From the IMG/VR virus record IMGVR_UViG_3300023296_001674: a stretch of DNA of 64,000 bases, one strand, 5' to 3'. Position 1 is the stretch's first letter. The number at the start of each line of letters is the position of its first letter. The DNA comes from a virus. Position numbers and translations under genes: made by a program. Positions 4,160 to 31,434 of the stretch are shown in pieces. The notes under the pieces were generated by a model. That model was not told the DNA's origin and did no database searches. It worked only from the letters and a program-made list of their open reading frames with translations.

Positions 4160-4208
4160 TTGACATAGCCCCTTGACTTCCCTACTATACTGGTAGGGAG
4201 GGATGAGG
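4160..4208 (+). repeat. E-element copy 1 (sigma70-like promoter + TAGGGAGGGATGAGG box), plus orientation
   Basis: TTGACA-N17-TACTAT then ctggTAGGGAGGGATGAGG; one of 12 copies of this module. Confidence 0.6.
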
Positions 4209-4325
4209 TTTATTTGGCTGCGAAAAATAACTGCACCAAAATGAAATAAAGTATTGACACCTTCTATCCAACCTGTATAATACCCACAGATTGAACGAAA
4301 CGACTTACCCCGAAGGAACGAACAA

Positions 4326-4664
4326 ATGGCTGATTCAAATTTTGTAGCGAAGCGAGTAGATGCCGGTGTCCCAATATGGACAATATTTGCTTACGGTAGG
4401 GACATTGGTTCTGCTACGGTTTTCGATTGGGAAGACGAAGGCCCAATGGCAACTGTTCGTTATGGGTATGATGATTTACCAGTTACGTTTTCGGGTTCTT
4501 CTATACGCGATGTATTGGCTAAGGTTGGCGCATTTTTGCGCACCATTGATTCTGATATGGAAGGCGAAGCCGCCGCCGAGTATTATAGCGAAGTTACAGG
4601 ACCAATGGAAGCGGCGGAGCGTTTAGCAGAACGCGGGTATCGGGATGATGACCCTATTTGGTAA
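4326..4664 (+). CDS. hypothetical protein
   Basis: ORF track; TTGACA-N16-TATAAT ~4254-4282; RBS gaaggaa. Confidence 0.6.
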   Translation: MADSNFVAKRVDAGVPIWTIFAYGRDIGSATVFDWEDEGPMATVRYGYDDLPVTFSGSSIRDVLAKVGAFLRTIDSDMEGEAAAEYYSEVTGPMEAAERLAERGYRDDDPIW

Positions 4665-4727
4665 TAGGGGTTGACATTAGGAATTGGGTGGTCTATAACG
4701 CCCTGAACTTAACAAAGGAACAAACAA

Positions 4728-4952
4728 ATGTATAGCGTATATGATAGTTCGAGAGACCCGCGCATGGTAATACCCGAAGTTATGGCACGGACTGTATTCG
4801 ATAGTATTATCGGCGAGTGGAAAATTGCCAAGTTAAAGGGTGGCGAAACTGAACGACGGTTTAAAGTTAAAGAATCGGCGCAATTCGTATTCGATAAACT
4901 TGGCGGTTTTACTATTTGTTTTATTGAAGGCGACTTAATAATTAAGGGTTGA
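4728..4952 (+). CDS. hypothetical protein
   Basis: ORF track; promoter TTGACA..TATAAC ~4669-4697. Confidence 0.55.
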   Translation: MYSVYDSSRDPRMVIPEVMARTVFDSIIGEWKIAKLKGGETERRFKVKESAQFVFDKLGGFTICFIEGDLIIKG

Positions 4953-5002
4953 CTCGCCCAATCCAATAGGCTATACAATAGGTCAACCAACGGAGAGAGA
5001 TT

Positions 5003-6511
5003 ATGCAAATACCAGAAATCACACTTTCAACGCAGCAAGTTAATATTCTTGATTGGGTTAAATCAGGAAAAGGTAATGTCATTATCGAAGCTGTAGCTGG
5101 CAGTGGTAAGACCTTCACATTGGTTGAAGCCGTTAAGTTGATGGTAGGCACTGTATTCCTTGGTGCTTATAACTCTGCTATGGGTTATGAGTTGAAGGAA
5201 AAAACCAAGGGCATGAAAAATGTTCGGGCTGGCACGTTCCATAGTGCAGGCTTTGGCGCACTTCAATATCGTTACGGAAAAATGCAAGTTGATGCTAACA
5301 AAGTGCGAGATATCGTTAATGGTATGGCGGAGGGCGACGACTTGTTTGCTGTATACGGCAACTTCATTAACAAGATGGTAGCACTTGCCAAGGATTCCGG
5401 CATTGGGTTCTTTAATAAAATTAACGACCCTATCATGTGGAATGAACTTGTTGATAAGCACGACCTTATGGATCAACTCGACGAACACTTAACAGTTGAT
5501 GTTGGTATTCAGTTATCAATGGACGTCTTAAAGGCATCTAACTCTAATCTTAAAGTTATTGATTTTAGTGATATGATTTATCTTGTATTGTTAAACAACC
5601 TCCGCCTTTTCCAACAAGATTGGGTTTTGGTTGACGAAGCCCAAGATACCAATAGCACGCGACGCGCACTGGCAAAGAAAATGTTAAAACCCGGTGGGCG
5701 TTTGATCGCGGTTGGTGATCCTCGCCAAGCAATCTTTGGCTTCACTGGTGCTGATTCCGATGCGCTGGACTTGATCTCCAAGGACTTCGGTACAACGACG
5801 CTTCCTTTGACTAGCACGTTCCGTTGCCCTAAATCGGTTGTTAAACACGCCCAACAATGGGTATCACACATTGAAGCGTATGATACTAATATCGAAGGCG
5901 AAGTTATCAACGCTAAATTCGACGACGTGTTCGGTGAAAAATCCGAATATAAGTTTACCGGTTCCGATGCAATCATTTGCCGCCTTAACGCGCCTATCGT
6001 TGAACTTGCATTCAAGTTGATTCGTAAGGGTGTTCCTTGCCGCATTGAAGGTAGAGATATCGGCACACAACTTGCAGCACTTGCAAACAAGTGGAAAGTA
6101 GTCCGCCTTGACGCCTTACGCAATCGCCTTGAGAAGTATAAGGAACGTGAAGTATCTAAGGCTATGGCAAAAGGGCAAGAACAGAAAGCCGGTAGCATTA
6201 CTGACCGCGTGGGCTGCCTTAATGTTCTTATCGAACGCGCCGAAGAAAAGAAACTTGACGTTGCTGGTTTGATTGTAATGATCAAGGGCATGTTTTCAGA
6301 CGCCCAAGATAAAACCACAAATAAGAACATTTTGGTTTTATCATCCGTTCATAAATCAAAAGGTAAAGAATGGCCTAGAGTGTTCTTGTTAGGACGCCAA
6401 GAAAATATGCCAAGTCCTTTTGCTAGACAGACATGGCAACTTTTACAAGAGGATAACCTTATCTACGTTGCTGTAACGAGGGCGATGGAAACGTTAATCG
6501 AAGTGGATTAA
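5003..6511 (+). CDS. SF1 UvrD/PcrA-like DNA helicase
   Basis: AVAGSGKTFTL (Walker A), VDEAQDTN, GDPRQAIFGFTGA, TFRCP, VLSSVHKSKGKEWPRVFL. Confidence 0.8.
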   Translation: MQIPEITLSTQQVNILDWVKSGKGNVIIEAVAGSGKTFTLVEAVKLMVGTVFLGAYNSAMGYELKEKTKGMKNVRAGTFHSAGFGALQYRYGKMQVDANKVRDIVNGMAEGDDLFAVYGNFINKMVALAKDSGIGFFNKINDPIMWNELVDKHDLMDQLDEHLTVDVGIQLSMDVLKASNSNLKVIDFSDMIYLVLLNNLRLFQQDWVLVDEAQDTNSTRRALAKKMLKPGGRLIAVGDPRQAIFGFTGADSDALDLISKDFGTTTLPLTSTFRCPKSVVKHAQQWVSHIEAYDTNIEGEVINAKFDDVFGEKSEYKFTGSDAIICRLNAPIVELAFKLIRKGVPCRIEGRDIGTQLAALANKWKVVRLDALRNRLEKYKEREVSKAMAKGQEQKAGSITDRVGCLNVLIERAEEKKLDVAGLIVMIKGMFSDAQDKTTNKNILVLSSVHKSKGKEWPRVFLLGRQENMPSPFARQTWQLLQEDNLIYVAVTRAMETLIEVD

Positions 6512-6536
6512 CTATGGTTTTTTGATAAATACTTAT

Positions 6537-7271
6537 ATGGTAAAACGCAAAACAACAGAACAGTTTATACAAGAATCGACTGCAATTCATGGTGATGTAT
6601 ATGATTATTCATTGACCAATTATATCAATAGACGTACCAAAGTAAAAATAATATGCACCGTTCATGGTATATATGAACAAACTGCGGGAAATCATTTATA
6701 TCAAAAACAAGGTTGCTCAAAATGTGCCGGTGATAAACAGGCATCGAGACAGCGAAAATCACTATCACAGTTTATTCAAGAGGCAACAATAGTTCACGAT
6801 TCTTTATATGATTATTCGTTGGTGGATTACAATCATACTGATATAAAAGTAAAAATAATATGCCCAACGCATGATATATTTAAGCAAACGCCGCATGATC
6901 ATTTACATGGAAAAGGTTGCCCTAAATGCGTTCATACTATATCAAAAGGTGAAACTAACTGGCTTAATCGCATTGGTTTACCAGACGATACACAACATAG
7001 ACAAGTGCGCTTGCCTATGAATAATAATAAAAATCGAAGGGTTGATGGTTATGATCCATTAACCAATACTGTTTATGAATTTCATGGTGATTACTGGCAT
7101 GGCAACCCCGCACGTTTTAATCTCGATGATATAAACCCAACCATTAAAAAACCATACAGACAACTCTATGAAGCCACCTTAACCAAGGAAGTGCTTATCA
7201 AAGATTCCGGTTATAATCTTGTAGTTATGTGGGAGCATGATTGGAAAGCTCATCCCTCCCTAACAGTATAA
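6537..7271 (+). CDS. homing-endonuclease-like protein (tandem zinc-ribbon-like repeats + C-terminal EDxHD/Vsr-like nuclease motif)
   Basis: Two repeats KVKIICxxHGIFxQTPxxHLxGKGCxKC; C-terminus VDGYDPLTNTVYEFHGDYWHGNP; paralog of 11698..12435 and 1..239; start uncertain (track gives TTG 6522). Confidence 0.6.
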   Translation: MVKRKTTEQFIQESTAIHGDVYDYSLTNYINRRTKVKIICTVHGIYEQTAGNHLYQKQGCSKCAGDKQASRQRKSLSQFIQEATIVHDSLYDYSLVDYNHTDIKVKIICPTHDIFKQTPHDHLHGKGCPKCVHTISKGETNWLNRIGLPDDTQHRQVRLPMNNNKNRRVDGYDPLTNTVYEFHGDYWHGNPARFNLDDINPTIKKPYRQLYEATLTKEVLIKDSGYNLVVMWEHDWKAHPSLTV

Positions 7272-7404
7272 TATTAAATTACTCGTAAAAAAGCAATGAT
7301 TATTTTTATAATATGACGTAAATTACTTGTTGACATTGGTTCAGTTAGTTTGTAATATCTTTTTATCAGAACATCATACATTCACAAATGAAAGATTGAA
7401 AATA

Positions 7405-7824
7405 ATGCCAACATATCGAAAAAGAATACTCATATCAGAATTCGCTGAACCAGAAATATTTTTTGAATATAAAGGTGTGAAAATATATCATACTTATACA
7501 GACAATGCTGAAACACTTTCATCATTGAATTTTGACCGTGATTGTAAAAGCAAGCGGTTGTTTACCACGAACAAAAAATGCGGCATGGTTCCCATGTTTG
7601 ATGTTTATTTTGAAAACGATCTTCGTGTATGGGACAAACAATCAAAAAATGAAACCCGTGGGGTGTTTAACATTCAAAACATTCCAAATCCTAAAGGGCA
7701 TCATATTACGACTCATGCTGGTATTTCAAGAGTTCTTATGGAAGCAATTGACACCGGTTGGATTAAAACTAATAAAACACCAGAGTGTATTCACGATTGT
7801 CATATACTCGCACATCCAAAATAA
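7405..7824 (+). CDS. hypothetical protein (Cys/His-rich C-terminus)
   Basis: Track ORF trimmed; TTGACA-N17-TAATAT ~7330-7358. Confidence 0.5.
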   Translation: MPTYRKRILISEFAEPEIFFEYKGVKIYHTYTDNAETLSSLNFDRDCKSKRLFTTNKKCGMVPMFDVYFENDLRVWDKQSKNETRGVFNIQNIPNPKGHHITTHAGISRVLMEAIDTGWIKTNKTPECIHDCHILAHPK

Positions 7825-7913
7825 TCACATCAAGGGGAGAAGTAAAACCTTTTCCCCTTGACTAACTTTAATAAGTGTGCTATGAATATATCATAATTGA
7901 AAAGGATACGAAA

Positions 7914-8138
7914 ATGCATAACGCAGATGTTCTACATAATGCCTTACTTACCGCAACGATGATGATGCGTAAAGGTCGTGCGTTTAAGATTGTTAGATAT
8001 TCACCCAAACAAGAAACGGTTTATTATAGACCATTTTTCGCCAACGACCTGACTGACATACGCACTGACGAGTTGGATCACTTGTGCGACGATGATTCGA
8101 TTCAGTTATTCACCACAACGCAACTCGAAACACAATAA
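7914..8138 (+). CDS. hypothetical protein
   Basis: Track ORF trimmed to ATG after aaaaggatacgaaa. Confidence 0.5.
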   Translation: MHNADVLHNALLTATMMMRKGRAFKIVRYSPKQETVYYRPFFANDLTDIRTDELDHLCDDDSIQLFTTTQLETQ

Positions 8139-8147
8139 GGAAAACCG

Positions 8148-8345
8148 ATGCAAACTTATACCACCCCACGCTTAACGAACATAAGTGATACATTTCGCGC
8201 CGACGTTGCTGCGGGTGAATTAACTACATGGTGTGAAGAAAACAGTGTAGGTGCTTGGTTCATCCACGCCGTTGATCATGTGGAGTTTGAATTCCCCACA
8301 GATGCCAAACAATTTATGATGAAGTTTTGGGAGCTAGACTCCTAA
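8148..8345 (+). CDS. hypothetical protein
   Basis: ORF track; RBS aaggaaa. Confidence 0.55.
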   Translation: MQTYTTPRLTNISDTFRADVAAGELTTWCEENSVGAWFIHAVDHVEFEFPTDAKQFMMKFWELDS

Positions 8346-8426
8346 AAATCCCCCCGCATGTTCCTACGCAAGTAATGAAGACACTCCATGCGGGGGTTCT
8401 TTTTGTTTTGGCGCACCCAAAAAAAG

Positions 8427-8473
8427 CTCATCCCTCCCTATCAGCATAATAGCAGGGTCAATAGATAAGTCAA
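8427..8473 (-). repeat. E-element copy 2, minus orientation
   Basis: plus strand reads aaaaaaaGCTCATCCCTCCCTATCAG..CATAAT..N17..AGTCAA; i.e. minus-strand TTGACT-N17-ATTATG-ctgaTAGGGAGGGATGAGC-T7; ~90% identical to copy at 18201. Confidence 0.6.
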
Positions 8474-8550
8474 CCATTATTATTAAAAATAAACCATTGA
8501 CAACGGCTTTTGTATTTTATATAATATATAGATTGAAAAGGAGAATTGAA

Positions 8551-8958
8551 ATGTCGCGCACTTATCGTAAGCTTCCTTATTGGTCAAATGATCCAAAATT
8601 AACACGTGAGCGAGGCTCCAAATGGACTGGCATGCGTGTTTTTGTTGCTCCTAATGGAAATGTATTCGGTTGGGATGATGAAGCCCTACGTAAAAAATCA
8701 TCTAAACGTCGCACCAATCGCATTCGCCGTTTGATGGGCAAGAAAGAAATTGTTCTTGCCGTTGCTGCTATGGCAGAAGACGCAATGGAAGACCTCAACG
8801 AAATGATGGATTGGGAAGCCGAAGAGTATTGCGATACATATTACGACGAGTATGAATTGTCTGAATGGGCTGATTGGAAACAGCGTGAAATTGATGATCA
8901 AGCAATTGAAGAATATTATTTAAATGAAGACCCATATTATTACGATTTTGATTATTAA
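8551..8958 (+). CDS. hypothetical protein with acidic/aromatic C-terminus
   Basis: Track ORF trimmed; TTGACA-N18-TATAAT ~8494-8525; RBS aaaggag. Confidence 0.55.
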   Translation: MSRTYRKLPYWSNDPKLTRERGSKWTGMRVFVAPNGNVFGWDDEALRKKSSKRRTNRIRRLMGKKEIVLAVAAMAEDAMEDLNEMMDWEAEEYCDTYYDEYELSEWADWKQREIDDQAIEEYYLNEDPYYYDFDY

Positions 8959-9035
8959 GGGTTGACATCACTATTTGATTTCGTTATGATTCATCCAAGC
9001 TAACAACACAACATAAATCTTGAAAGGATTTAACT

Positions 9036-9293
9036 ATGGCTAATAAATTCACAATCACACGCACTTATGATCGCGATGAAATTATTGACACAGTTAATAA
9101 ATCCATTGAACAAAACGGAACATATCATCAAATCAAATCGTTGCTTGATACTTTATATACTGGATGGTTTTTTGATATAGAAACGGCTTGCGAAGTTGAA
9201 TTGATTTTACGCGAAAAGGGCGATTTTATTCGCGAGTTTTATCAAGAACGGCTAGACGAAATGAATGCTGCCAAGAAATTTGACTTGGTATAA
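9036..9293 (+). CDS. hypothetical protein
   Basis: ORF track; leader aacaacacaacataaatcttgaaaggatttaac repeated at 9308-9342. Confidence 0.55.
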   Translation: MANKFTITRTYDRDEIIDTVNKSIEQNGTYHQIKSLLDTLYTGWFFDIETACEVELILREKGDFIREFYQERLDEMNAAKKFDLV

Positions 9294-9342
9294 CTATTCA
9301 CTTAAGATAACAACACAACATAAATCTTGAAAGGATTTAACA

Positions 9343-10775: not shown

Positions 10776-10941
10776 TCAATTAAAAAGGGAAGCAGAAATG
10801 CTTCCCTTTTTTTATGCTTGACACTGGTTTAGTTAATTGCTATGTTAAATCGTCGTTGCCCAAGAAAGCGGGTTGATAAAGACTTGACTGACACTACGAA
10901 GTGTTCTATTGATTAATCATAACAACAAAAAGGAACCGAGT

Positions 10942-11301: not shown

Positions 11302-11704
11302 AGCCGTAACGCAATATGAAACATTCGACGGAAAAGTATTCTCCGACGAAAATGCCGCTGAACAATGGGAACGCAATACAAATAAAGCAAACGCAATCAT
11401 ATCGATGTTTCCGAACAACGGTCATCTTTCATCTGGCGATTTCTATCAGTTATCAAGAGATTTGATTAGCACCGCGAGAATTAAACTTGCCGATGCTTTA
11501 ACTCGTGGCGGCTTCGATGACGAAATGATTAAAGCATTTCGTGATAATACCAGCGATGTAATCGGACGCTATCTCGACGACGGCGGTTCAACATATTATA
11601 AAGCATGGTGGTTATTTTCTTGTATTGACAATCAAGGGCGGATGTTCAATCAACCGTTCTTTGCCAATAATCCAAGAGAAATAAGAGATGAAGTTTCCTA
11701 TTGA
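11294..11704 (+). CDS. hypothetical protein
   Basis: ORF track; overlaps upstream by 8 nt. Confidence 0.55.
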   Translation: MPKAVTQYETFDGKVFSDENAAEQWERNTNKANAIISMFPNNGHLSSGDFYQLSRDLISTARIKLADALTRGGFDDEMIKAFRDNTSDVIGRYLDDGGSTYYKAWWLFSCIDNQGRMFNQPFFANNPREIRDEVSY

Positions 11705-12435
11705 TTCTTCCAATCATTTTCCCATATCGTGACAAGATTATAGCCGTGAGATTTAATAAGAGTCTCACGGTTCATAGTCTTTTGATATAACTCGCCGAAT
11801 GATTTTTTATTATTGGTGTTGATATGTTCGGGATTGTGTGTATTAGGATTCCCATGCCAATAATCACCATAGAACTCATATATGGTATTTGTGTCAGGGT
11901 CATAACCGTCTGGATATATCCATTGATTATTTAATATTAAAGTTCGTCGCCTATAATCATTTGTATCAGGTAATCCAATATGATCAAGCCACGATTTTTC
12001 CATATATGATTTATTCTGTATAGTTAATGGTCGCAACATAATGGCGCACTTATTACATCCATGATTTAAATGTGCTGATGGTTCTTGTTGAAATATTCCA
12101 TGTTCAGGGCAAATGATATTCACCTTTGTATGCGTGTTATGATAATCAACTAATGAATAATTATATTTATCGCCATGTTTTATCAACGATTTTTGTATAA
12201 ATTTTAATGTAGTTCCCCGTATTTTATCTGAATTATTTTTTATTGCACATTTAATACAGCCTTTTCCACTACTAGTGTGCGAACAAGGCGTCTGTTCAAA
12301 TATTCCATGAGTTGTGCATATTATTTTAACTTTGGTATGGGCGGCAATATATATAGACAATGAATAGTCATATCTATCACCATGAATGGCGATAGCATCT
12401 TGAATGAATTTTGAGGTAGTTTTTCTTCTTGACAT
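11698..12435 (-). CDS. homing-endonuclease-like protein (paralog of 6537..7271)
   Basis: MSRRKTTSKFIQDAIAIHGDRYDYSL..KVKIICTTHGIFEQTP..GKGCIKCA, second repeat, C-terminus YEFYGDYWHGNP. Confidence 0.65.
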   Translation of the reverse strand: MSRRKTTSKFIQDAIAIHGDRYDYSLSIYIAAHTKVKIICTTHGIFEQTPCSHTSSGKGCIKCAIKNNSDKIRGTTLKFIQKSLIKHGDKYNYSLVDYHNTHTKVNIICPEHGIFQQEPSAHLNHGCNKCAIMLRPLTIQNKSYMEKSWLDHIGLPDTNDYRRRTLILNNQWIYPDGYDPDTNTIYEFYGDYWHGNPNTHNPEHINTNNKKSFGELYQKTMNRETLIKSHGYNLVTIWENDWKNQ

Positions 12436-13808: not shown

Positions 13809-14096
13809 ATGGAACTAAACGACCTCCCATCGGTTGCAGCAATGCACCAACACAAGAACCCCGATCAGAAACGGAATGAACGTCGTATGCAGGAATTTAT
13901 AACTGACGATATGATACACCCCGACGAGCCAGCACCACAACATAGGTCGCCTTCGTTGTTGAATGACACCGCCTCGACAGTTGTGTTCGAGGCTGGCATT
14001 GATACACCGCAAATGAGCCGCGATTGTATCATTGCTATATATGAAAAAATATTGGGTGGCAATCCAGAAACTGAACTTAAAAATCTTTTTGCTTGA
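13809..14096 (+). CDS. hypothetical protein
   Basis: Track ORF trimmed; promoter TTGACT ~13776. Confidence 0.45.
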   Translation: MELNDLPSVAAMHQHKNPDQKRNERRMQEFITDDMIHPDEPAPQHRSPSLLNDTASTVVFEAGIDTPQMSRDCIIAIYEKILGGNPETELKNLFA

Positions 14097-14121
14097 CATT
14101 GGTTCAGTTAGTTGCTATAAA
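14093..14121 (+). promoter_or_regulatory. sigma70-type early promoter, cassette family G1
   Basis: TTGACAttggttcagttagttgcTATAAA; leader gtaggtaacttaacccgaaaggaaaca; ~60 bp near-identical at 14713 and 21794. Confidence 0.6.
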
Positions 14122-14147
14122 GTAGGTAACTTAACCCGAAAGGAAAC

Positions 14148-14456: not shown

Positions 14457-14716
14457 AAATTGATACCTCACGACTTGCAAATATTATGCGCATCGCGTAT
14501 AACAATCATCACATGAACATGGGTAGCCGTTATTTCTGCAATCGCACCGATGAGATATTATATAACACAATGCGTCGGGCAAACTTAACTGGTTTAGATT
14601 TTTTGGATTGCAGCACGATGTCAAAGAACATATCAACAGTTATGCATGGGTTGTTGCCGTGGAGCAATGATTTATATGAAGAACTTCGTGCATTGTTATT
14701 TGTAGAAACCGCTTGA
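14453..14716 (+). CDS. hypothetical protein
   Basis: ORF track; ATGA overlap. Confidence 0.55.
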   Translation: MKIDTSRLANIMRIAYNNHHMNMGSRYFCNRTDEILYNTMRRANLTGLDFLDCSTMSKNISTVMHGLLPWSNDLYEELRALLFVETA

Positions 14717-14741
14717 CTCTGGTTCAGTTAGTTGCTATAAA
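14713..14741 (+). promoter_or_regulatory. sigma70-type early promoter, cassette family G1 (duplicate of 14093)
   Basis: cgcTTGACTctggttcagttagttgcTATAAAgtaggtaacttaacccgaaaggaaacacaATG. Confidence 0.6.
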
Positions 14742-14770
14742 GTAGGTAACTTAACCCGAAAGGAAACACA

Positions 14771-16278: not shown

Positions 16279-16335
16279 TGCTTGACAGTGGTTCAGTTAG
16301 TTGCTATAACAAGGCAACAGATAAAGGACAATCAA

Positions 16336-18177: not shown

Positions 18178-18212
18178 GATAAGTCAACCTAAAATAATGG
18201 TTGACTTATCTA
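18178..18212. repeat. perfect 13-bp inverted repeat (hairpin) flanking E-element copy 3
   Basis: aaaaaaAGATAAGTCAACCtaaaataatGGTTGACTTATCT; right arm supplies the -35 TTGACT of the E promoter; would be a minus-strand terminator (stem + U7). Confidence 0.5.
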
Positions 18213-18248
18213 TTGACTCTGTTATTATACTGGTAGGGAGGGATGACC
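18201..18248 (+). repeat. E-element copy 3, plus orientation
   Basis: TTGACT-N17-ATTATA-ctgGTAGGGAGGGATGACC-T5. Confidence 0.6.
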
Positions 18249-18338
18249 TTTTTATAAATAAAATGATTAAAATAAGGTGTTGACTATGATTCACTTATCC
18301 TTTATAACTGAACCAACGCTTTAACAAGGAGATTTTTT

Positions 18339-19451: not shown

Positions 19452-19556
19452 ATGAGAAACGAAGGCACACTCGAAGAACGATATGAAATTTATAAAACCA
19501 ACGCGGAACTTTTGGGTTGGTACATTAAAACTTTTGATGAATGGATGAACAGCTAA
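19452..19556 (+). CDS. small protein (34 aa)
   Basis: Not in track; RBS caggag; MRNEGTLEERYEIYKTNAELLGWYIKTFDEWMNS; followed by terminator 19560-19588. Confidence 0.35.
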   Translation: MRNEGTLEERYEIYKTNAELLGWYIKTFDEWMNS

Positions 19557-19608
19557 AAAGGAGACGGGGTTCGCCCCGTTTTCTTTTAGGTATATATTCC
19601 AGAAAAAA

Positions 19609-19655
19609 CTCATCCCTCCCTACCGTAATAATACCACAATCAACCAAAGAGTCAA
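19609..19655 (-). repeat. E-element copy 4, minus orientation
   Basis: plus: aaaaaaCTCATCCCTCCCTACCGtAATAAT..N17..AGTCAA. Confidence 0.6.
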
Positions 19656-19671
19656 GCGTTAAAGACAAAAA

Positions 19672-19788
19672 AAGACCCGCCAATTATTAGCGAGTCTTTT
19701 TTCTTTCTCAGGGTACGCCCTCCGATAGCCGAAGGGCAAAATGAATTCGCTACTTAACCGATCCCTCAATTATTTTCGCTGCATCAGA
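19672..19788 (-). ncRNA. candidate ~115-nt minus-strand small RNA (promoter-to-terminator unit, no ORF)
   Basis: Minus-strand TTGACT-N17-TATATT (plus 19795-19823) reads leftward into hairpin gactcgc-taataattg-gcgggtc+T7 (plus 19673-19702); internal GCCCUUCGGC..GGGC structure; no plausible ORF. Confidence 0.3.
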
Positions 19789-19899
19789 AGTTATAATATA
19801 CCACCTACATTAAAAAGAGTCAACATCTATTATTCGCTTGACTATGGTTCAGTTATGTTCTATGTTTAATCATCAATAACAAATAGAAAGGTTTCAACC

Positions 19900-20445: not shown

Positions 20446-20506
20446 GTAAAACAAAGGGTGGGGATATTCCCCATCCTTTTTTACATCCATTAACATCCAT
20501 AAAATG

Positions 20507-20554
20507 CTCATCCCTCCCTATCATCACAATACGACCTAACTGTATCAAAGTCAA
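20507..20554 (-). repeat. E-element copy 5, minus orientation
   Basis: plus: aaaatGCTCATCCCTCCCTATCAtCACAAT...AGTCAA. Confidence 0.55.
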
Positions 20555-20618
20555 CACTTATTTTTCACTTGACATATAATATTTTAATGGTATTATACTT
20601 ACAGAAAGGACAAAAATT

Positions 20619-21511: not shown

Positions 21512-21570
21512 CTGTTGACTCTGGTGTAGTTAGTTCGTATATTAACTACACCAGAACAAAGGAACTGAAT

Positions 21571-21793: not shown

Positions 21794-21822
21794 TTGACTC
21801 TGGTTCAGTTAGTTGCTATAAC
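21794..21822 (+). promoter_or_regulatory. sigma70-type early promoter, cassette family G1
   Basis: cccTTGACTctggttcagttagttgcTATAACtgtatcaacttaacccgaaaggaacacacaATG. Confidence 0.6.
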
Positions 21823-21852
21823 TGTATCAACTTAACCCGAAAGGAACACACA

Positions 21853-22885: not shown

Positions 22886-22951
22886 CCCTTGACACTGGTT
22901 CAGTTAATCGCTATAACTTAATCAACGAAACACCAACAGAAAGACAATCAA

Positions 22952-24209: not shown

Positions 24210-24273
24210 GTGCTTGACAGTGGTTCAGTTAATTGCTATGTTAAATCATCGAAACGAACAAAGGATGACCCAG

Positions 24274-25327: not shown

Positions 25328-25382
25328 AGTGATCAAAGAGGTTACATTTATGTAACCTCTTTGACTAACTTAAAATAGTTCT

Positions 25383-25428
25383 TGCATTATCGATTGACTC
25401 GTGTATGATCATATCAGGGAGGGATCAG
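25383..25428 (+). repeat. E-element copy (variant), plus orientation
   Basis: TTGCAT..TATGAT..catatCAGGGAGGGATCAGcg-T6. Confidence 0.45.
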
Positions 25429-25577
25429 CGTTTTTTATGGCGCAAGATTATTACAAAATTAAGTGAAACAAAGTAATAAAATAATGCATTATTCGGTTGA
25501 CCATGTTACAGTTATTTGCTATATTTAAATTGTTCCAAGGCACTAACGCCTAACACAGATTGAAAGGGAACCACAAA

Positions 25578-26054: not shown

Positions 26055-26069
26055 CCGATTCATACAAGG

Positions 26070-26104
26070 AAAAGAAAGTCAAGAGAAATCTTGACTTTCT
26101 TTTC
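26070..26104 (+). terminator. rho-independent terminator (repeated hairpin type containing TTGAC)
   Basis: gAAAGTCAAGAgaaaTCTTGACTTTCttttcg; same core hairpin at 27834-27872. Confidence 0.6.
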
Positions 26105-26152
26105 GATTCATTTGTTCACGTTTTGTTCTTATAAGATGATACCCAAAAAAAA

Positions 26153-26201
26153 CTCATCCCTCCCTGATACAAAATTACCACGTTTACCCCATACGAGTCA
26201 A
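26153..26201 (-). repeat. E-element copy 6, minus orientation
   Basis: plus: aaaaaaaaCTCATCCCTCCCTGATAC...GAGTCAA. Confidence 0.55.
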
Positions 26202-26292
26202 CACTTAATTTATTTTTATTTAGGGGGTTGACTCATCTGATGCCTACCTTTATAACTACAAATAGAAACCAACCACATAAGGAATTGCCCAC

Positions 26293-26595
26293 ATGAAAAA
26301 CACTTACATAAACGCAGTATTCTTTAATGTATCTAACGAAAACGGTTTGGATACGTTTGCCGATAAGGTCCAGAAAGCATTGGATTGCGAATTGTTTTAT
26401 TATGAAAATGGTAGGGAAATAGGCGTGGTTACGTGTGGCGGTTCCCCATCTGGCAAGGATTACCAGTTTGGCATGGGTGGTGGCAACTTTGATTTGGATC
26501 ATAACGTGGTGCTATATTCCGAACCCGCTACCGTGTTCGTTATGTTCGATGACGCTAGTGGTAGCAGGTGCGTTCAGCCAGTAAGCCACCGATAA
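26293..26595 (+). CDS. hypothetical protein
   Basis: ORF track; G4 promoter cassette catttagggggTTGACTcatctgatgcctaccttTATAAC ~26215-26252 (duplicated at 26716). Confidence 0.55.
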   Translation: MKNTYINAVFFNVSNENGLDTFADKVQKALDCELFYYENGREIGVVTCGGSPSGKDYQFGMGGGNFDLDHNVVLYSEPATVFVMFDDASGSRCVQPVSHR

Positions 26596-26648
26596 GAAAA
26601 GAAATCGGCGCGGGGGCAAATTAGCCCTTGCGCCTTTTTTTGTTTCGT

Positions 26649-26677
26649 GGTATAAAATCCGTAGGGGGGGATGAGCC
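26649..26677 (+). repeat. degenerate E-like box (GGGGGGG variant)
   Basis: gtggTATAAAatccGTAGGGGGGGATGAGCC. Confidence 0.3.
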
Positions 26678-26790
26678 GATTTTATCATCAAAATTTATTT
26701 TAATAATAGTGCATTTAGGGGGTTGACTCATCTGATGCCTACCTTTATAACTACAAATAGAAACCAACCACAACCCCGAAGGAACTTATC

Positions 26791-27168
26791 ATGCAAAAAG
26801 TAATCGCCCACATCGAAGCAATCAACGCAGCAACCGGCAGCACTTGGGTTTTGAACGCGGATCATTGGGCTGGCTACGAAATAACCACACCCGAAGCGTT
26901 TGATCGTTATGTGCTTACCACAAGCATTTGGGATGCATACAAATATGGCTTGGGCTTTAAGCCACACGGCATGATGATGGAAGCAATGAGCATGGAACAG
27001 TTGGAACGCGAACTGGAAAGCGTTCGCGCTTCAATCGATGCGAACGCCGAACACGAAGCCGAACGGGAACGGGTGAACAATTTCACTTGGCAAGAACATC
27101 TTGCTTGCGCCAACATGCCAGCAATGGCAAACGACTCCCCCTTCGCAGTGTTGCAGGGGGTGCGATAA
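26791..27168 (+). CDS. hypothetical protein
   Basis: ORF track; duplicated G4 promoter 26716-26753; terminator 27180-27206. Confidence 0.55.
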   Translation: MQKVIAHIEAINAATGSTWVLNADHWAGYEITTPEAFDRYVLTTSIWDAYKYGLGFKPHGMMMEAMSMEQLERELESVRASIDANAEHEAERERVNNFTWQEHLACANMPAMANDSPFAVLQGVR

Positions 27169-27228
27169 CCAACCGAAAGGGGCGGGGGATTTTCCCCCGT
27201 TTTTTCGCGCCAGCAATTCCAAAAAAAA

Positions 27229-27277
27229 GACATCCCTCCCTATGGTGATATTAGCACTATTGCCCAAACAGAGTCAA
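27229..27277 (-). repeat. E-element copy 8 (GACATCC variant), minus orientation
   Basis: plus: aaaaaaaaGACATCCCTCCCTATGGTGATATTA..N18..AGTCAA. Confidence 0.55.
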
Positions 27278-27333
27278 CACTTATTTTCGCCCCCAAATTT
27301 CAGGCATCACCCAATCTTACCACGTTTTCGAAT

Positions 27334-27375
27334 TACAAGTCAACCCCCTATTTTAATTCATTTAAGGGGTTGACT
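27334..27375. repeat. 11-bp perfect inverted repeat around promoter -35
   Basis: GAGTCAACCCCctattttaattcatttaaGGGGTTGACTC. Confidence 0.5.
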
Positions 27376-27431
27376 CTGTTTGGGTTGGGTAGTAATATCC
27401 CTTTATCAACTTAACAAAAGGAAACAAACAC

Positions 27432-27821
27432 ATGGATTCATTAAACGTTTTTGCGGATTCGAAAGTTGGCGATGGTGCAACGATCAATATGTATAGCGAT
27501 TCAAAGGCTTGCACGATTGTGGCGATTAGTGATAAGCGTATCACGGTTCAATATGACGATGTTAAATTGTTGAACGGTGCGAAATCTGGCGAACCCGATG
27601 CACTGGTTTTTGATGTAGGCGGATTTTCCGCACACTGTTCAGGTCGCCAGCGTTGGGAAACAACACCAAACCCCGAAGGCGGCAAGGTGACTTATTCCCT
27701 GCGCAAGTGGAACGACTACAAAAATGAACCAGTTATGCGGTGGGCACCAGTTGGCAGCAAACGCCACGAAGGTTCAGGCTTAACCGAAGGAAGGCATCAC
27801 CACTACGATTTCAATTTCTAG
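27432..27821 (+). CDS. hypothetical protein
   Basis: ORF track; promoter TTGACT..TAATAT ~27371-27400. Confidence 0.55.
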   Translation: MDSLNVFADSKVGDGATINMYSDSKACTIVAISDKRITVQYDDVKLLNGAKSGEPDALVFDVGGFSAHCSGRQRWETTPNPEGGKVTYSLRKWNDYKNEPVMRWAPVGSKRHEGSGLTEGRHHHYDFNF

Positions 27822-27833
27822 GCACAAGGAAAA

Positions 27834-27872
27834 AGGAGAGTCAAGAGAAATCTTGACTTTTCTTTTTTTATT
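27834..27872 (+). terminator. rho-independent terminator (second copy of TTGAC-containing hairpin)
   Basis: ggAGAGTCAAGAgaaaTCTTGACTtttcttttttt. Confidence 0.6.
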
Positions 27873-27891
27873 TTTTCCGCCGCCAAAAAAA

Positions 27892-27939
27892 GGTCATCCC
27901 TCCCTACCACCATAATACACTATTCGAACAACGAGTCAA
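27892..27939 (-). repeat. E-element copy 9, minus orientation
   Basis: plus: aaaaaaaGGTCATCCCTCCCTACCACCATAATAC..N17..GAGTCAA. Confidence 0.6.
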
Positions 27940-27944
27940 GACTA

Positions 27945-28072
27945 TAAACGGGGAACCACGAATGATTCCCCGTTTTCTTTTCTATAATGGCTTGGCTTGC
28001 CGTGTCGCCAGACGATTAGATCATGATGTCAAATCCTTCCGTTAATTTTTATCCGGTGTTTGAACTTACTCT
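27945..28072 (-). ncRNA. candidate ~125-nt minus-strand small RNA
   Basis: Minus TTGACA-N16-TATTAT (plus 28080-28107) reading left into hairpin aaacggggaaccacgaatgattccccgttt (27947-27976); no ORF. Confidence 0.3.
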
Positions 28073-28180
28073 CTACACCATAATACATTAAACAAAATAG
28101 ATGTCAACACTTATTTTAGGGGTTGACACTAACAATCGAAACCGCTATAACTGTATCAACTTAACCAAAAGGAACACCCA

Positions 28181-28390
28181 ATGTCAAACCAAGCATTTGT
28201 AGTTTATAACGGCAAAATCACAGTCAAGACTGAGATTTACGACGGCGGTTTATATTTCGCCGACACCGTGAAAGAAGTGACACAACGCTTGCGCGATTGC
28301 GAGACGTTGGTTGTTAAATCTGGCAGTGAACGCGACCTTAAGAAAATCGTCACCGTCGCCGACCTTTTCACAAACAATCCCCAAGGATAA
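28181..28390 (+). CDS. hypothetical protein
   Basis: ORF track; promoter TTGACA..TATAAC with G5 leader. Confidence 0.55.
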   Translation: MSNQAFVVYNGKITVKTEIYDGGLYFADTVKEVTQRLRDCETLVVKSGSERDLKKIVTVADLFTNNPQG

Positions 28391-28394
28391 GACA

Positions 28395-28889
28395 ATGTCA
28401 AATCCCAAACACATAAACGATTTTTGCAAAGAACTTCGCGCACTTATGGAAAAGCACGGAATTGATTCATTAGGTGTCGAAATTGAGGGCGACACACACG
28501 GCATAAGTGAACAATTCGTTATCGATGATAATCAAAATAAAACACACGTGATCGACGGATTTTCAAGTTATTTGGATAAATCAGATTTGCGTGATTATAT
28601 CGAAGTAACCAGCGAATTATTGAAACGCGACGACGTTCAATTTGTTATCAACGATTTGCAAGATGATGGAGAAGAAAGTTCCGCTAAACTTTTTGAAGAC
28701 TATATCATCAAAGCGGAAAACAACGGCTTAAACATCGACCAAGCATTCCAAGGCACTATCGCACTAAGGGAAGCAATGAATATTATGGGAAGTTATTTCG
28801 ACGCCCTGAATACTAATAATCTTGTTTTTGTTAATCAAATCAATGCGATTGATTCAGCAATGCTACATTATAAAGATAGTTTAAAATAA
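28395..28889 (+). CDS. hypothetical protein
   Basis: Track ORF 28311..28889 trimmed to ATG after aaggataagaca. Confidence 0.5.
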   Translation: MSNPKHINDFCKELRALMEKHGIDSLGVEIEGDTHGISEQFVIDDNQNKTHVIDGFSSYLDKSDLRDYIEVTSELLKRDDVQFVINDLQDDGEESSAKLFEDYIIKAENNGLNIDQAFQGTIALREAMNIMGSYFDALNTNNLVFVNQINAIDSAMLHYKDSLK

Positions 28890-28950
28890 CCGTTGACACT
28901 GGTACATGAAACCGATATAACTGTATCAACTTAACCAAAAGGATCATATC

Positions 28951-29310
28951 ATGGAAACAATATCGCGGTTTTATGCGCACGCTGGCAAAATTGCCATAAC
29001 GATTGGCGCGGGTGATACTACATATATCACCACAGACCAAGCCGAAATGATCGGCGCTAAATTATCTGAACTTGCCAGTCAAGTGAAAAACGGCAATCAT
29101 TCGACTACGGTTGAAGTTCCCGCAACTGAAGAACAAATGAAACGGATGCGTGAGGATGCGCCCGAAATTTATAAAATCATTCGTTGTTATCGCAATGGCA
29201 ATAGCCCCCGCACAATTGCACGTAGTGTAACGATTTTCGAAGCGCAAGAACATTGTAGCGATCCATCAACCTCAAACACCAAATATTTTGATGGATATGA
29301 GTTGAAATAG
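28951..29310 (+). CDS. hypothetical protein
   Basis: ORF track; promoter TTGACA..TATAAC + G5 leader. Confidence 0.55.
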   Translation: METISRFYAHAGKIAITIGAGDTTYITTDQAEMIGAKLSELASQVKNGNHSTTVEVPATEEQMKRMREDAPEIYKIIRCYRNGNSPRTIARSVTIFEAQEHCSDPSTSNTKYFDGYELK

Positions 29311-29370
29311 GTCTTGACTCTGGTGTAGTTAGTTCGTATATTAACTACACCAGAACAAAGGAACAAACAA

Positions 29371-29511
29371 ATGTCAAACGCTGAAATGTATCTCGATTGG
29401 GTTAACAATTTTTTAACTGTTGCACGGTTCGCCGAATATTACAATATCTCCGAGACCGAAGCTCTTGCCGTGATCGAAAAAGGTCGCATCGACCACCACG
29501 CAAATCTGTAA
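29371..29511 (+). CDS. small protein (46 aa)
   Basis: Not in track; palindromic G2 promoter 29313-29357 (identical to 21516); RBS caaaggaacaaacaa-ATG. Confidence 0.4.
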   Translation: MSNAEMYLDWVNNFLTVARFAEYYNISETEALAVIEKGRIDHHANL

Positions 29512-29529
29512 ACAACGAAAGACAAACCC

Positions 29530-29829
29530 ATGCAAGTCACAACCGAACAACTCGAAACTTTCCTAACTAAAGCGCAAGCACATGTAAACGCTGATTACAG
29601 CACTAACTTTGAAGGCGATGCGCCAACACTTTCGATTGACCCAATGACCGAACGATCTAAGTACGCCAAAATCGTGAAAGATACCGGTCAACGTTCATTG
29701 TGGGGTTTCGTTGAACTATCAACCGGCAATCTGTTGACAGGCAGTTGGAAAGCACCACGCAAATCAAAATCAACATGCGGTCATATTGACGAGCCATTCT
29801 TACCACGGACTCGCTGGATGAGTGTATAA
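29530..29829 (+). CDS. hypothetical protein
   Basis: ORF track. Confidence 0.55.
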   Translation: MQVTTEQLETFLTKAQAHVNADYSTNFEGDAPTLSIDPMTERSKYAKIVKDTGQRSLWGFVELSTGNLLTGSWKAPRKSKSTCGHIDEPFLPRTRWMSV

Positions 29830-29895
29830 TAAACCCTTGACTCTGATTCAGTTATTCTTTATAACTGAATAATCAGAACAACGAAAGAAAATCCA

Positions 29896-30072
29896 ATGGT
29901 AGGCAAACTTAATTTTCGTGTATTCCAAGATGGCAAACAACACATTGTTTCCGCACGTAGCATCGTGGTTCGTTTTGAACAAGGTGCATTCATATCAGCT
30001 AACATAAGACAAGATAGTGCCGAATATCTTGAAGCATGTGAAGCAATGGTTAAACATGATATGGGCGAATGA
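29896..30072 (+). CDS. small protein (58 aa)
   Basis: Not in track; G3 palindromic promoter 29838-29880; RBS gaaagaaa. Confidence 0.35.
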   Translation: MVGKLNFRVFQDGKQHIVSARSIVVRFEQGAFISANIRQDSAEYLEACEAMVKHDMGE

Positions 30073-30073
30073 T

Positions 30074-30253
30074 ATGACTGAAATTGCACAAGGCACTGAA
30101 GTCAAATTAAAATTCATTAACGGCGAAAATCGTTATGGCGCACTTATGGATAATCGAAAAAAACATTTGATTTATCGCCCCGTTGATGGTATCAATACCA
30201 TTGTTTTTCATAAAGACTTGAAAAGTGTTGCACCCGTATATATTCCATCTTAA
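30074..30253 (+). CDS. hypothetical protein
   Basis: Track ORF 30017..30253 trimmed; followed by terminator 30266-30299. Confidence 0.4.
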   Translation: MTEIAQGTEVKLKFINGENRYGALMDNRKKHLIYRPVDGINTIVFHKDLKSVAPVYIPS

Positions 30254-30282
30254 TAAAAACAACAGCCGGAGTCACTTAGGTG

Positions 30283-30329
30283 TTGACTCCGGCATTTTTC
30301 CTGCTAATATACTATCAGGGAGGGATGAG
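30283..30329 (+). repeat. E-element copy 11, plus orientation (its -35 lies in the upstream terminator stem)
   Basis: CCGGAGTCActtaggtgTTGACTCCGGcatttttcctgctAATATActaTCAGGGAGGGATGAG. Confidence 0.6.
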
Positions 30330-30444
30330 TAAAATTCGCCCCGAAAAAAACTTTCATTTTATTTCATTTAAGGGGTTGACTCTGATCGGGTTGGGTAGTA
30401 ATATCACTACATCAAAACAAACCAACAACCCAAGGAACAAAACC

Positions 30445-31029
30445 ATGGCAACCGATAAAAATGGCTTAACACTTTCAAACGCTTCTGATTCTGGTTATAA
30501 ATTTGTAACTACTTTGTTTGAAGGACCGCTGGCTGGAAAGTTCGTCGCCTTCGCGGATGTTAAAACCGCCGAATTGCAACGCCTGAACAAATCTCACGCG
30601 CACGGAATAAACGGTTTCTTTGGATTCAAAAACGTTGTTCCGTTGGGCGTTTTCGATGATGTGCGCGACGCCGCATACGTTGGACAAACATTCCACGCAG
30701 GGAACGCAGATGACCGCGACGACAACCTTGCCGAATTATACGCTGGCAATGAGTCAGTTATCCCTAAATCATTGACCGATTGGGATAATCCCGCCGATGT
30801 TACTTCAATGAAAAAAGCCGCAACCCGCGCAAAAACCCGACGCATGGGTAAAACATTCGATGCAAAAAAAGCCGAGACCGCAATCGATAAGTTTGCCAAC
30901 AATTTCAAATCATACAAAATCGGTAACATGGATGTCCGCGTAATCTTGGAACGCATGAAAGAACTGTTTGATAACGGAACAAGCTTAACCCTTTCCGCCG
31001 AAACCGTTTGCTCCGATTACCAGCGATAA
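30445..31029 (+). CDS. hypothetical protein (194 aa)
   Basis: Track ORF 30280..31029 trimmed (N-terminal extension would translate the promoter region); promoter TTGACT..TAATAT ~30368-30397. Confidence 0.55.
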   Translation: MATDKNGLTLSNASDSGYKFVTTLFEGPLAGKFVAFADVKTAELQRLNKSHAHGINGFFGFKNVVPLGVFDDVRDAAYVGQTFHAGNADDRDDNLAELYAGNESVIPKSLTDWDNPADVTSMKKAATRAKTRRMGKTFDAKKAETAIDKFANNFKSYKIGNMDVRVILERMKELFDNGTSLTLSAETVCSDYQR

Positions 31030-31060
31030 CCCTTGACTCTGGTGTAATTGATAAGTATAA

Positions 31061-31363
31061 TTGATTACACCAGAACAAAAGGAATTTAACATGGATAAAC
31101 GCGATGTGATTGTAATTTGCGTTGGCAGTGCCGCCGATGATATACGCGCACTTAATCACGCAACAAACTCCGCAGTTCTAGTCGTTGAAGATAAACCCGC
31201 AATTCACGAAATGGCATTGATGGATGATATATTTTTAACCGATGAAGCAAAAGATATGTTTGTGCTTGAATTAATCGAAGACGCGTTGCCAAAGAATTTT
31301 CTAAGTGAACCAAAACCCCGAAAGGCTTGGAAAAACGAATTCGAAAATCTAGGTCGTAAATAA
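31061..31363 (+). CDS. hypothetical acidic protein
   Basis: ORF track; palindromic promoter 31033-31078. Confidence 0.55.
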   Translation: MITPEQKEFNMDKRDVIVICVGSAADDIRALNHATNSAVLVVEDKPAIHEMALMDDIFLTDEAKDMFVLELIEDALPKNFLSEPKPRKAWKNEFENLGRK

Positions 31364-31387
31364 ATCAAAACCAGAGTCACTTAGGTG

Positions 31388-31434
31388 TTGACTCTGGATT
31401 TCTTTCTGCTATTATACTGTCAGGGAGGGATGAC
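31388..31434 (+). repeat. E-element copy 12, plus orientation
   Basis: CCAGAGTCActtaggtgTTGACTCTGGatttctttctgctATTATActgTCAGGGAGGGATGAC. Confidence 0.6.

Follow-up and report, generated by a model that had tools for sequence, protein, structure and literature searches.

In phage T4, promoter-early stem-loop (PeSL) modules occupy hyperplastic regions; to our knowledge they share the orientation of the genes and lack an invariant transcribed box. Stabilisers at the 5' end of messenger RNA were reportedly studied by Hue et al. in 1995 and by Agaisse and Lereclus in 1996, as cited by others. Two publications describe that mRNA in Bacillus can be stabilised, without being translated, by 5' leaders with ribosome-binding-like sequences, the early RNA of phage SP82 being one case (PMC7509114, PMC3997798). 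A short element of phage SPbeta, SPBRE, was first predicted computationally and subsequently proved to be the site of a repressor (PMC10516654). The regulatory logic of very large uncultivated phages is largely unexplored, and these phages are known nearly only via gene catalogues. The present analysis concerns a stretch of 64,000 nucleotides (64 kb; hereafter the window) of the IMG/VR virus record IMGVR_UViG_3300023296_001674, which represents a clade of uncultivated, very large (~570 kb) phages. In this window a promoter unit is repeated in both orientations, and its predicted transcripts begin with a nearly invariant decamer that lies within what is here called the box.

The element is statistically clear and conserved between lineages, and approximately half of its units point at no gene. 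The sequence itself carries the promoter anatomy, the position of the box at the predicted +1, its invariance, the orientation pattern, the terminator context and the complementarity to 16S ribosomal RNA. Tentatively, and with a probability of roughly 0.35, we read the element as a cassette that consists of a promoter and a 5'-terminal super-Shine-Dalgarno tag. If such a tag recruits ribosomes or another host factor, the idea of a 5' stabiliser would extend to a modular phage cassette, and would also take in small convergent RNAs overlapping with message 3' ends. If the box is an operator, it would define an immediate-early regulon within an anti-defence block (ArdC-like, ADP-ribosyltransferase, Macro, SprT and UvrD). 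Under either reading, the element is a short and testable sequence.

Occurrence, anatomy and conservation of the box promoter units

A search of the window for TAGGGAGGGATGAS with at most two mismatches returned 13 matches, against 0.21 expected, and none of 100 shuffled sequences reached 13. The core AGGGAGGGAT, allowing at most one mismatch, detected the identical 13 sites (1.7 expected). Moreover, the word GGGAGGG is absent from the 64 kb outside the box sites, and a profile hidden Markov model built from 31 copies recovered exactly 13 window copies, with none between 32 and 64 kb. The copies cluster within ~36 kb of an early-gene block, and the genes called between ~4 and 34 kb are nearly all on the plus strand; six of the boxes are plus- and seven are minus-oriented (Table 1). 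An earlier note on this DNA had counted twelve copies, of which five or six were plus and six minus. The repeated element, its two orientations and the number of six plus copies are borne out, whereas the total is 13 and the minus copies number seven, since the copy at 7249-7262(-) had been overlooked. The coordinate list given then also mixed two conventions, plus copies being placed by the start of the -35 and minus copies by the start of the box; Table 1 lists the box together with the predicted transcription start site (TSS), which, wherever it is given, lies one nucleotide (nt) inside the box.

Twelve of the 13 copies are intergenic, at 45-144 nt past the upstream stop codon and 100-279 nt ahead of the next start codon; for 19609(-), the upstream gene is a 34-amino-acid open reading frame (ORF) that ends at 19556 and was read by hand. 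The exception, 7249(-), overlaps the end of ORF 6537-7271. Two further observations in the earlier note proved accurate: the copies 8427(-) and 18201(+), described as ~90% identical, are 92% complementary over 61 nt (8421-8481 versus 18193-18253), and 30316+ and 31421+, whose -35 the note had placed inside the upstream terminator stem, each have it within the 3' arm of a terminator-like hairpin.

The promoter anatomy was derived from 23 copies aligned on the box. The -10 consensus is TATTAT, with T(-12) in 21/23, A(-11) in 23/23, T(-10) in 19/23, T(-9) in 21/23, A(-8) in 19/23 and T(-7) in 22/23 copies, and it is preceded by an extended -10 with T(-15) in 17/23 and G(-14) in 16/23. The -35 word TTGAC begins at -34 to -36 in 20 of the 23 copies, giving a unit consensus of TTGACT, a spacer of 16-18 bp, and TGnTATTAT. 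Between the -10 and the box there is a gap of 5-7 nt, the sequence of which is not conserved. By these features the box units are predicted to be canonical extended -10 promoters of the primary sigma (sigma-70/sigma-A) type, and the sigma-70-like architecture proposed earlier is genuine with respect to both the -10 and the -35, with the box at the predicted +1. Because of the aligned -10 and -35 positions, the A of AGGGAGGGAT falls on the predicted +1 and the box would be the initial transcribed sequence. No instance of the decamer without a promoter was encountered, and the decaying copy 26662+ has lost box and -35 together. A promoter for a T7-like single-subunit RNA polymerase was rejected on the basis of the variable -10-to-box spacing and the conserved host-type -35.

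Relatives were gathered through homologs of the ArdC-like and UvrD proteins, and the window phage was named lineage A. Box counts per lineage refer to the DNA examined only: 14 copies were found in the window together with L004 (lineage A), 10 in L115/L109 (lineage B; helicase 78% identical to that of the window), four in L117 (lineage C; 73%) and two in L119 (lineage D; 69%). Without a lineage letter are L143 (66%), with one variant copy, AGAGAGGGAT, and L144 (63%), with no copy, although its helicase operon is the same. A scan of JGI metagenomes added two short contigs only, L113 and L114, with one copy each. Conservation of the box in related phages had been named beforehand as a check, and the decamer is indeed kept in lineages A-D: it is identical in 31 of 32 copies from these lineages and the two stray contigs, the exception being 26662+. 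In seven orthologous or paralogous pairs, positions +1 to +10 are 100% identical, compared with 69% in the -35, 54% in the spacer, 73% in the -10 and 37% from +25 to +60. The first ten bases that are predicted to be transcribed are thus more conserved than the promoter hexamers.

Lineages A, B and C agree in the orientation of the copies at orthologous sites. A plus copy precedes the operon that ends with the helicase gene (window 4195+, L115 9107+, L117 8712+), and a minus copy lies just past the helicase (window 7252-/8430-, L115 11783-, L117 12034-, L143 4212-, with the L115 and L117 copies being the positional counterparts of the unit at 7239..7296). Further ortholog pairs are window 26156- with L109 3989-, and window 27232- with L109 5558-. 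The genes between copies have no detectable kinship. Since they are not paralogs, the box repeats appear to be regulatory modules that did not arise through duplication of genes, and an origin of the repeats in paralogous flanking genes was rejected for the same reason. Homology fades at ~-45 and at +14 to +25 without terminal repeats or target duplications, which argues against a transposon-like unit. Whole promoter or gene cassettes have been swapped between relatives. The earlier suggestion of a self-mobile promoter cassette is not supported, given this lack of terminal repeats and target duplications and the conserved position and orientation at orthologous sites.

Searches of wider collections returned the following. 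In IMG/VR, a scan for the box with a T-run gave 0 matches and a scan for the 14-mer gave 102 loci, all single-copy among the matches listed, which equals chance level. One scan of the GTDB genomes gave 0 matches and a second gave 23 single matches, again at chance level; the two that were inspected (a Streptomyces metagenome-assembled genome and a Limiplasma leader) were unrelated. The box was not found in the more distant ArdC loci L111 and L112. Deposited phages had no nucleotide match to the window by megablast, and protein matches to deposited phages were all distant, the best being to phages of Gram-negative bacteria and cyanobacteria. The literature searched contained no description of the element, and the decamer matched only unrelated eukaryotic primer or gene sequences.

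The part of the box that follows the decamer is variable. The ATG had been regarded as a constant part and is lost in 6 of 32 copies, being replaced by ATA, ATC or ATT, while the following AGC is kept in 3 of these. The run of five to seven T residues that had been included in the definition of the element does not define it either: a T-run of at least five occurs in 14 of 31 copies over all lineages (10/16 minus and 4/15 plus copies), and is absent from the deeper lineages C and D and from most plus copies. The mini-ORFs encoding MSFFW were rightly judged accidental, as the ATG is inconstant, the length of the T-run in L114 alters the frame, and the peptides of orthologs are unrelated. A leader peptide MSFFW was rejected because no start codon, frame or peptide is conserved across orthologs. 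With the AUG of the box only 1 nt from GGAGG, lost in the said six copies and followed by no conserved peptide, the tag is, as far as can be read from the sequence, not used for translation.

The minus copies start 65-111 nt past the upstream stop codon and are aimed at the terminator, mostly bidirectional, of that upstream gene. The predicted RNA of a minus copy is ~60-100 nt long, has the 5' end AGGGAGGGAUGA, and is antisense to the upstream message at its 3' end. Short RNAs with this start, directed into the upstream terminator, had been foreseen in the earlier note, and only their length, then put at 20-70 nt, is estimated differently here. A scan detected a terminator-like hairpin 38-95 nt downstream of 9 of 16 minus copies. 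Among the plus copies, 4195+, 18235+, 25416+ and 30317+ have no terminator before the promoter of the gene itself, and a downstream hairpin also occurs at 31421+, L117 8712+ and L119 9058+. At L117 8712+, the ortholog of 4195+, a perfect terminator spans +16 to +54, ahead of the gene promoter. Plus copies had been described as tandem upstream promoters (P1), which holds for the several that read through, but not for 31421+ and L117 8712+, which would terminate first. As most minus copies and some plus copies run into a nearby terminator, many units resemble stand-alone small-RNA genes, and the common denominator of the units is, by prediction, a promoter launching an RNA that begins AGGGAGGGAU and not a promoter for the next gene. 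Minimum free energy folds of the predicted transcripts had no fold in common after the box. Rfam gave nothing at gathering score over the window, where a tRNA scan gave nothing relevant, and at E<=1 over 4-33 kb its sole match was 29280-29378, which is weak and unrelated.

Table 1. Box promoter units in the window, with predicted start sites and immediate context
Feature	Coordinates	Strand	-35	Predicted TSS	Box	Context
Box promoter unit	4160..4217	+	TTGACA at 4160	4195	4194-4207	Precedes conserved operon 4326-6511, whose last gene encodes the UvrD helicase
Box promoter unit	7239..7296	-	weak, ATTGCT	7261	7249-7262	Overlaps last codons of DUF723 endonuclease-like ORF 6537-7271
Box promoter unit	8417..8474	-	8473-8468	8439	8427-8440	Faces bidirectional terminator 8353-8397
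Box promoter unit	18201..18257	+		18235	18234-18247	Gene promoter 18280 and gene 18339 reached without intervening terminator
Box promoter unit	19599..19656	-		19621	19609-19622	Terminator 19561-19579 ahead; predicted RNA ~65 nt
Box promoter unit	20497..20555	-		20519	20507-20520	Terminator 20459-20473 ahead
Box promoter unit, partly degenerate	25382..25438	+		25416	from 25415; CAGGGAGGGATCAG, ATG lost	
Box promoter unit	26143..26202	-		26165	26153-26166	Terminator 26069-26104 ahead; AGAACAAAACGTGAACAAA at ~+36, as in relatives
Decaying copy	26629..26685	+	TTGCGC, inside terminator 26607-26634		from 26662; AGGGGGGGAT	Profile E=0.005
Box promoter unit	27219..27278	-		27241	27229-27242	Terminator 27184-27197 ahead
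Box promoter unit	27883..27940	-		27905	27893-27906	Terminator 27828-27869 ahead
Box promoter unit	30283..30339	+	inside hairpin 30266-30292	30317	from 30316	Heads to gene 30445
Box promoter unit	31388..31444	+	inside hairpin 31371-31397	31422	from 31421	Meets hairpin 31464-31481, also used by a convergent minus-strand unit; upstream of ArdC-like gene 31673-32593; counterparts L109 9049+ and 9861+

Possible functions of the box

In the tag cassette that we favour, the host RNA polymerase with its primary sigma factor would fire the strong cassette promoter, and the RNA would have the 5' end pppAGGGAGGGAU as a single-stranded super-Shine-Dalgarno tag. Once this 5' end emerges, the 30S subunit, or some other abundant factor that binds GGA motifs, would dock on it. 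Docking would not lead to a translation start, and would shield or mark the RNA in the manner of the STAB-SD and SP82 polypurine sequences. In the plus orientation, the tagged leader transcript would continue into the promoter of the next gene and the gene itself; in the minus orientation, and for some plus copies, a tagged RNA of ~60-100 nt would end at the adjoining terminator. Transcription from the units, binding of 30S or another factor, stabilisation of the RNA and a role for the short RNAs are what we infer from the following evidence.

In the pairing predicted by RNAduplex, CCUCCUU of the 16S tail (AUC[A]CCUCCUU) lies opposite box positions 1-7 and AUC opposite positions 8-10, leaving one bulged A. 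The energy of this pairing is -13.0 kcal/mol for a Bacillus-type tail and -13.6 kcal/mol for an E. coli tail, both being generic tails, compared with -6.5 to -9.6 kcal/mol for the phage's own ribosome-binding sites. The ribosome-binding consensus of the phage genes is AAAGGA(A), and GGAGG occurs at 22 sites on both strands of the window, 12 of which are boxes, whereas none of the remaining 10 window sites is at a predicted ribosome-binding site. The extent of the complementarity to 16S equals the extent of the invariance of the box, and a universal partner such as 16S would explain invariance across lineages. Like STAB-SD, the box combines complementarity to 16S with a location at the RNA 5' end, as judged by the predicted TSS, and serves no start codon. 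Of the four functions that the earlier note had offered for the box without preferring one, pairing with the anti-Shine-Dalgarno sequence thereby gains some support.

Several points weigh against the tag. Every TSS and every RNA end is a prediction. The best protein matches are to phages of Gram-negative bacteria and cyanobacteria, so that the logic of a Bacillus 5' exonuclease may not apply; together with a gene for a lipoprotein of the 17-kDa-antigen type, they suggest that the host may be Gram-negative. A stabiliser gives no reason for conserved units without a downstream gene, and a tag that is read as RNA need not begin exactly at +1, unless it acts via the 5' end. The perfect 16S complement is AAGGAGGUGAU, compared with which the box has a wobble pair and one base fewer. 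The only variant in a deeper relative, L143 4212- with AGAGAGGGAT, disrupts the GGAGG core. Finally, the restriction to one subclade, with L144 lacking the box, is fitted at least as well by a lineage-specific phage factor.

Such a factor is central to the reading that comes close behind the tag cassette and that we consider possible, if doubtful: the box as a DNA operator, in which a regulator encoded by the subclade would bind the asymmetric decamer at +1 and jointly switch the promoters of this class off or on. The switch would provide immediate-early timing that is distinct from the gene-proximal promoter class. An operator would suit a box that is fixed over +1, invariant and always accompanied by a promoter, as well as its confinement to one subclade, L144 carrying the same operon without a box. 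A second promoter class in the window has its own palindromic dyad, which suggests class-specific regulators. Asymmetric, multi-copy phage operators are known in the C1 operators of P1 and the stoperators of L5. The binding of MrpR to SPBRE at ~10 promoter regions of SPbeta sets a further precedent (PMC10516654). On the other hand, no candidate binding protein was identified among the scanned ORFs, and families of DNA-binding regulators had no match among the scanned subset of window ORFs. An operator also does not explain why promoters that point at nothing are maintained in the same orientation across lineages. The distance between -10 and box also varies by 1-2 nt, the box following the TSS. 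Identity with the SPbeta SPBRE/MrpR operator was rejected, since SPBRE is ACAAATACAAAAAATATGTATA, a different sequence; in the ~84 of 134 kb of SPbeta that were searched, the box did not occur above chance.

It seems unlikely that the box has no function of its own and that, as the initial transcribed sequence of a very strong promoter, it owes its uniformity only to selection for promoter escape and recombination between copies. The minus copies would in this case be convergent 'insulator' promoters against read-through, and the modules would be shuffled like T4 PeSL. In its favour, promoter, leader and terminator modules recur across the region like a mosaic, promoter regions have been exchanged between relatives, and the copy numbers per lineage are 14, 10, 4 and 2 in the DNA examined. 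Purine-rich starts are also typical of the initial transcribed regions of strong phage early promoters, such as T7 A1 and T5 N25. Nevertheless, ten invariant bases at 69-78% helicase identity, with substitutions in the -35 and -10, are more than escape should require, and recombination between copies cannot homogenise separate phage lineages. The orientation kept at orthologous sites is a further difficulty for this explanation.

Somewhat less probable is a role during initial transcription, as a hybrid G-quadruplex terminator or primer, in which the U-run, where one follows (+15 to +22, often ending in GG), would act as a hairpin-less pause or release site. The products would be ~20-nt RNAs or R-loops that serve as replication primers, as at the mitochondrial conserved sequence block II (CSBII). 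An elaborate form of this proposal, which we regard as a little less probable again, holds that the copies are hairpin-less micro-transcription units. Here nascent GGGAGGG would form a hybrid G-quadruplex with the non-template DNA, or would be captured in trans by the 16S tail, and thereby free the polymerase where a U-run follows; the ~20-nt tagged RNAs or R-loops could be primers, or decoys for ribosomes or RNA-binding proteins early in infection. Of 32 copies, 31 retain both G3 tracts (GGGAGGG at +2 to +8), and by the time the polymerase arrives at the last U of the run, ~8-10 nt, that is the box, would just have emerged from the RNA exit channel. The higher frequency of T-runs in the gene-less minus copies (10/16, versus 4/15 in plus copies) points in the same direction, and termination and priming at CSBII are documented (PMC4176368, PMC3488243). 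However, lineages C and D and most plus copies lack the T-run, a quadruplex has no need of the invariant A1, A9 and U10, and the L143 variant destroys the first G tract, while clustering in the ~36-kb early block would be odd for replication origins.

Those three invariant bases, together with A5, would be accounted for if the short tagged RNAs served as decoys or sponges, either of a CsrA/RsmA-type protein of the host or of host small RNAs rich in C and U, which we nonetheless consider improbable. The sequence AGGGAGGGAUG contains two overlapping ANGGANG cores. Box positions 5-11 (AGGGAUG) fit ARGGAUG in the consensus RUACARGGAUGU obtained for CsrA by systematic evolution of ligands by exponential enrichment (SELEX), which occurs in the literature (e.g. 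PMC4347634). The units are numerous, have strong promoters and short predicted transcripts, as a sponge would require; yet each RNA has one unstructured 5' site with two overlapping motifs and no conserved fold. Known CsrA sponges carry many GGA motifs in hairpin loops. The match to the motif is weak evidence, because any Shine-Dalgarno-like sequence partly fits it.

Very improbable, finally, is that plus and minus copies bracket gene cassettes so that the complementary ends of a read-through RNA form a long-range duplex for RNase III or for end protection: the order plus copy, helicase operon, minus copy is kept in lineages A, B and C, single genes are flanked at 25415+/26153- and 26662+/27229-, and the order in lineage B is - + - + - + - followed by + + +, but a terminator stands between each gene and the minus copy, the partners share 10-13 nt only, the minus copies retain full promoter signals that the model does not need, and the order of orientations gave no significant result in runs tests calculated by hand (z ~0.9 and ~1.5).

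The gene block and its other repeated elements

The block in the window encodes ArdC N-terminal and zincin peptidase, ART-PolyVal, Macro, SprT-like and UvrD domains, a set typical of injected or early anti-defence proteins as judged by sequence, and in relatives the block follows the rIIA/rIIB genes. A second promoter family has at least 20 members, each immediately ahead of a gene and on the plus strand, with TTGAC(A/T)CTGGTTCAGTTAGTTGCTATAAC and a conserved spacer (10818-10855, 14093-14130, 14713-14750, 16282-16319, 19838-19875, 21515-21555, 21794-21833, 22889-22926, 24214-24251, 29314-29354 and 29837-29875, among others). Its -10 is often TATAAC, which 14 of 55 promoter-like sites have. In several copies a dyad, such as CTGGTGTAGTTA...TAACTACACCAG or CAGTTA..TAACTG, extends across the spacer, the -10 and +1, as at 21520-21555 and 29319-29354; it looks like the palindromic operator of a dimeric regulator, distinct from the box class.

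Three units on the minus strand (~19660-19823, ~27945-28107 and ~31455-31591) consist of a good promoter (TTGACT/TTGACA, 16-17 bp, TATATT/TATTAT) followed ~100-130 nt further on by a terminator hairpin. They contain no ORF and have no Rfam match, and are candidate small RNAs. Two of them lie directly upstream of the boxes 19609- and 27893-, and the third converges on 31421+, with which it has the terminator in common. The motif AGAACAAAACGTGAACAAA occurs ~35 nt past the box in lineages A, B and C (window 26111-26130, as the complement; L109 3989- and 9861+; L117 17906-), and as it follows both a minus and a plus copy in lineage B, the module of this subfamily seems to extend beyond the box. 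Just upstream of a TTGACA promoter, AAAATAACTGCACCAAAATGAAA(T)AAAGT is conserved in three lineages, being found in the window at 4218-4253, in L109 at 4660-4700 and in L114 at 305-335, and could be an UP-element or a binding site. A promoter-plus-leader segment of 60 nt is 100% identical at 26218-26277 and 26713-26772, before the unrelated genes 26293 and 26791.

Terminators form families as well. One is built on GTCAAGATTTCTCTTGAC (window 26069-26104 and 27828-27869; L004 ~560-590), and the -35 word TTGAC/GTCAA recurs in terminator stems, including 30266-30292 and 31371-31397. In lineage B (L109 972, 1437, 1933 and 3919, minus) a hairpin AGGTAGGGATAT(A)ATATACCCCTACC is repeated after genes; although 9 of 10 positions agree with the box, this hairpin is palindromic and terminator-like and is not a box copy.

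Three related DUF723 (homing-endonuclease-like) ORFs lie at 78-254, 6537-7271 and 11698-12435, in both orientations and on DNA segments that are 70-85% similar. The ORF at 6537-7271 occupies the place of a small gene that relatives have between the helicase and the minus box. The window also contains genes for an HNH (1853-2503) and a GIY-YIG (39533-40207) endonuclease. Between 34000 and 36600 the GC content is ~33%, and small minus-strand ORFs (34435-36537) break the plus-strand block; four ORFs of this run had no Pfam match. Short tandem coding repeats that are rich in GAT, GAC and TCC (Asp/Ser-rich) are present at 38087-38192 in ORF 37596-38357.

Comparison with described systems

The hybrid G-quadruplex at CSBII differs from the present element in that the box has only two G3 tracts, an inconstant T-run and additional invariant flanks, and in that its setting is bacterial. 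Promoters of the T7 group (TATA|GGGAGA) share with the box units the word TAGGGAG across the start, and are likewise multi-copy, intergenic and orientation-specific; the box units, unlike these, keep a TTGACT -35 and a sigma-70 -10, with a gap of 5-7 nt. In SPbeta, SPBRE is similar as a short conserved element at ~10 promoter regions of a large phage genome, but its sequence is unrelated and it is not fixed at +1, and no MrpR-like protein, for which no search was made, was seen in the present material.

The STAB-SD of Bacillus thuringiensis cryIIIA and the SP82 stabiliser differ in several respects: the box starts at the predicted +1 and is fused to a promoter, it is present in multiple copies in both orientations and in many cases without a gene, and its present host may not be a Firmicute. 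In common with these stabilisers, the box is a polypurine sequence that is complementary to the 3' end of 16S, lies near the RNA 5' end and does not initiate translation. The organisation of the region corresponds to that of T4 PeSL, with an intergenic stem-loop or terminator joined to a sigma-70 early promoter, a variable block of small early genes, and cassettes that are swapped. In contrast to PeSL, half of the copies of the box family are antisense, and the box is the feature that defines it.

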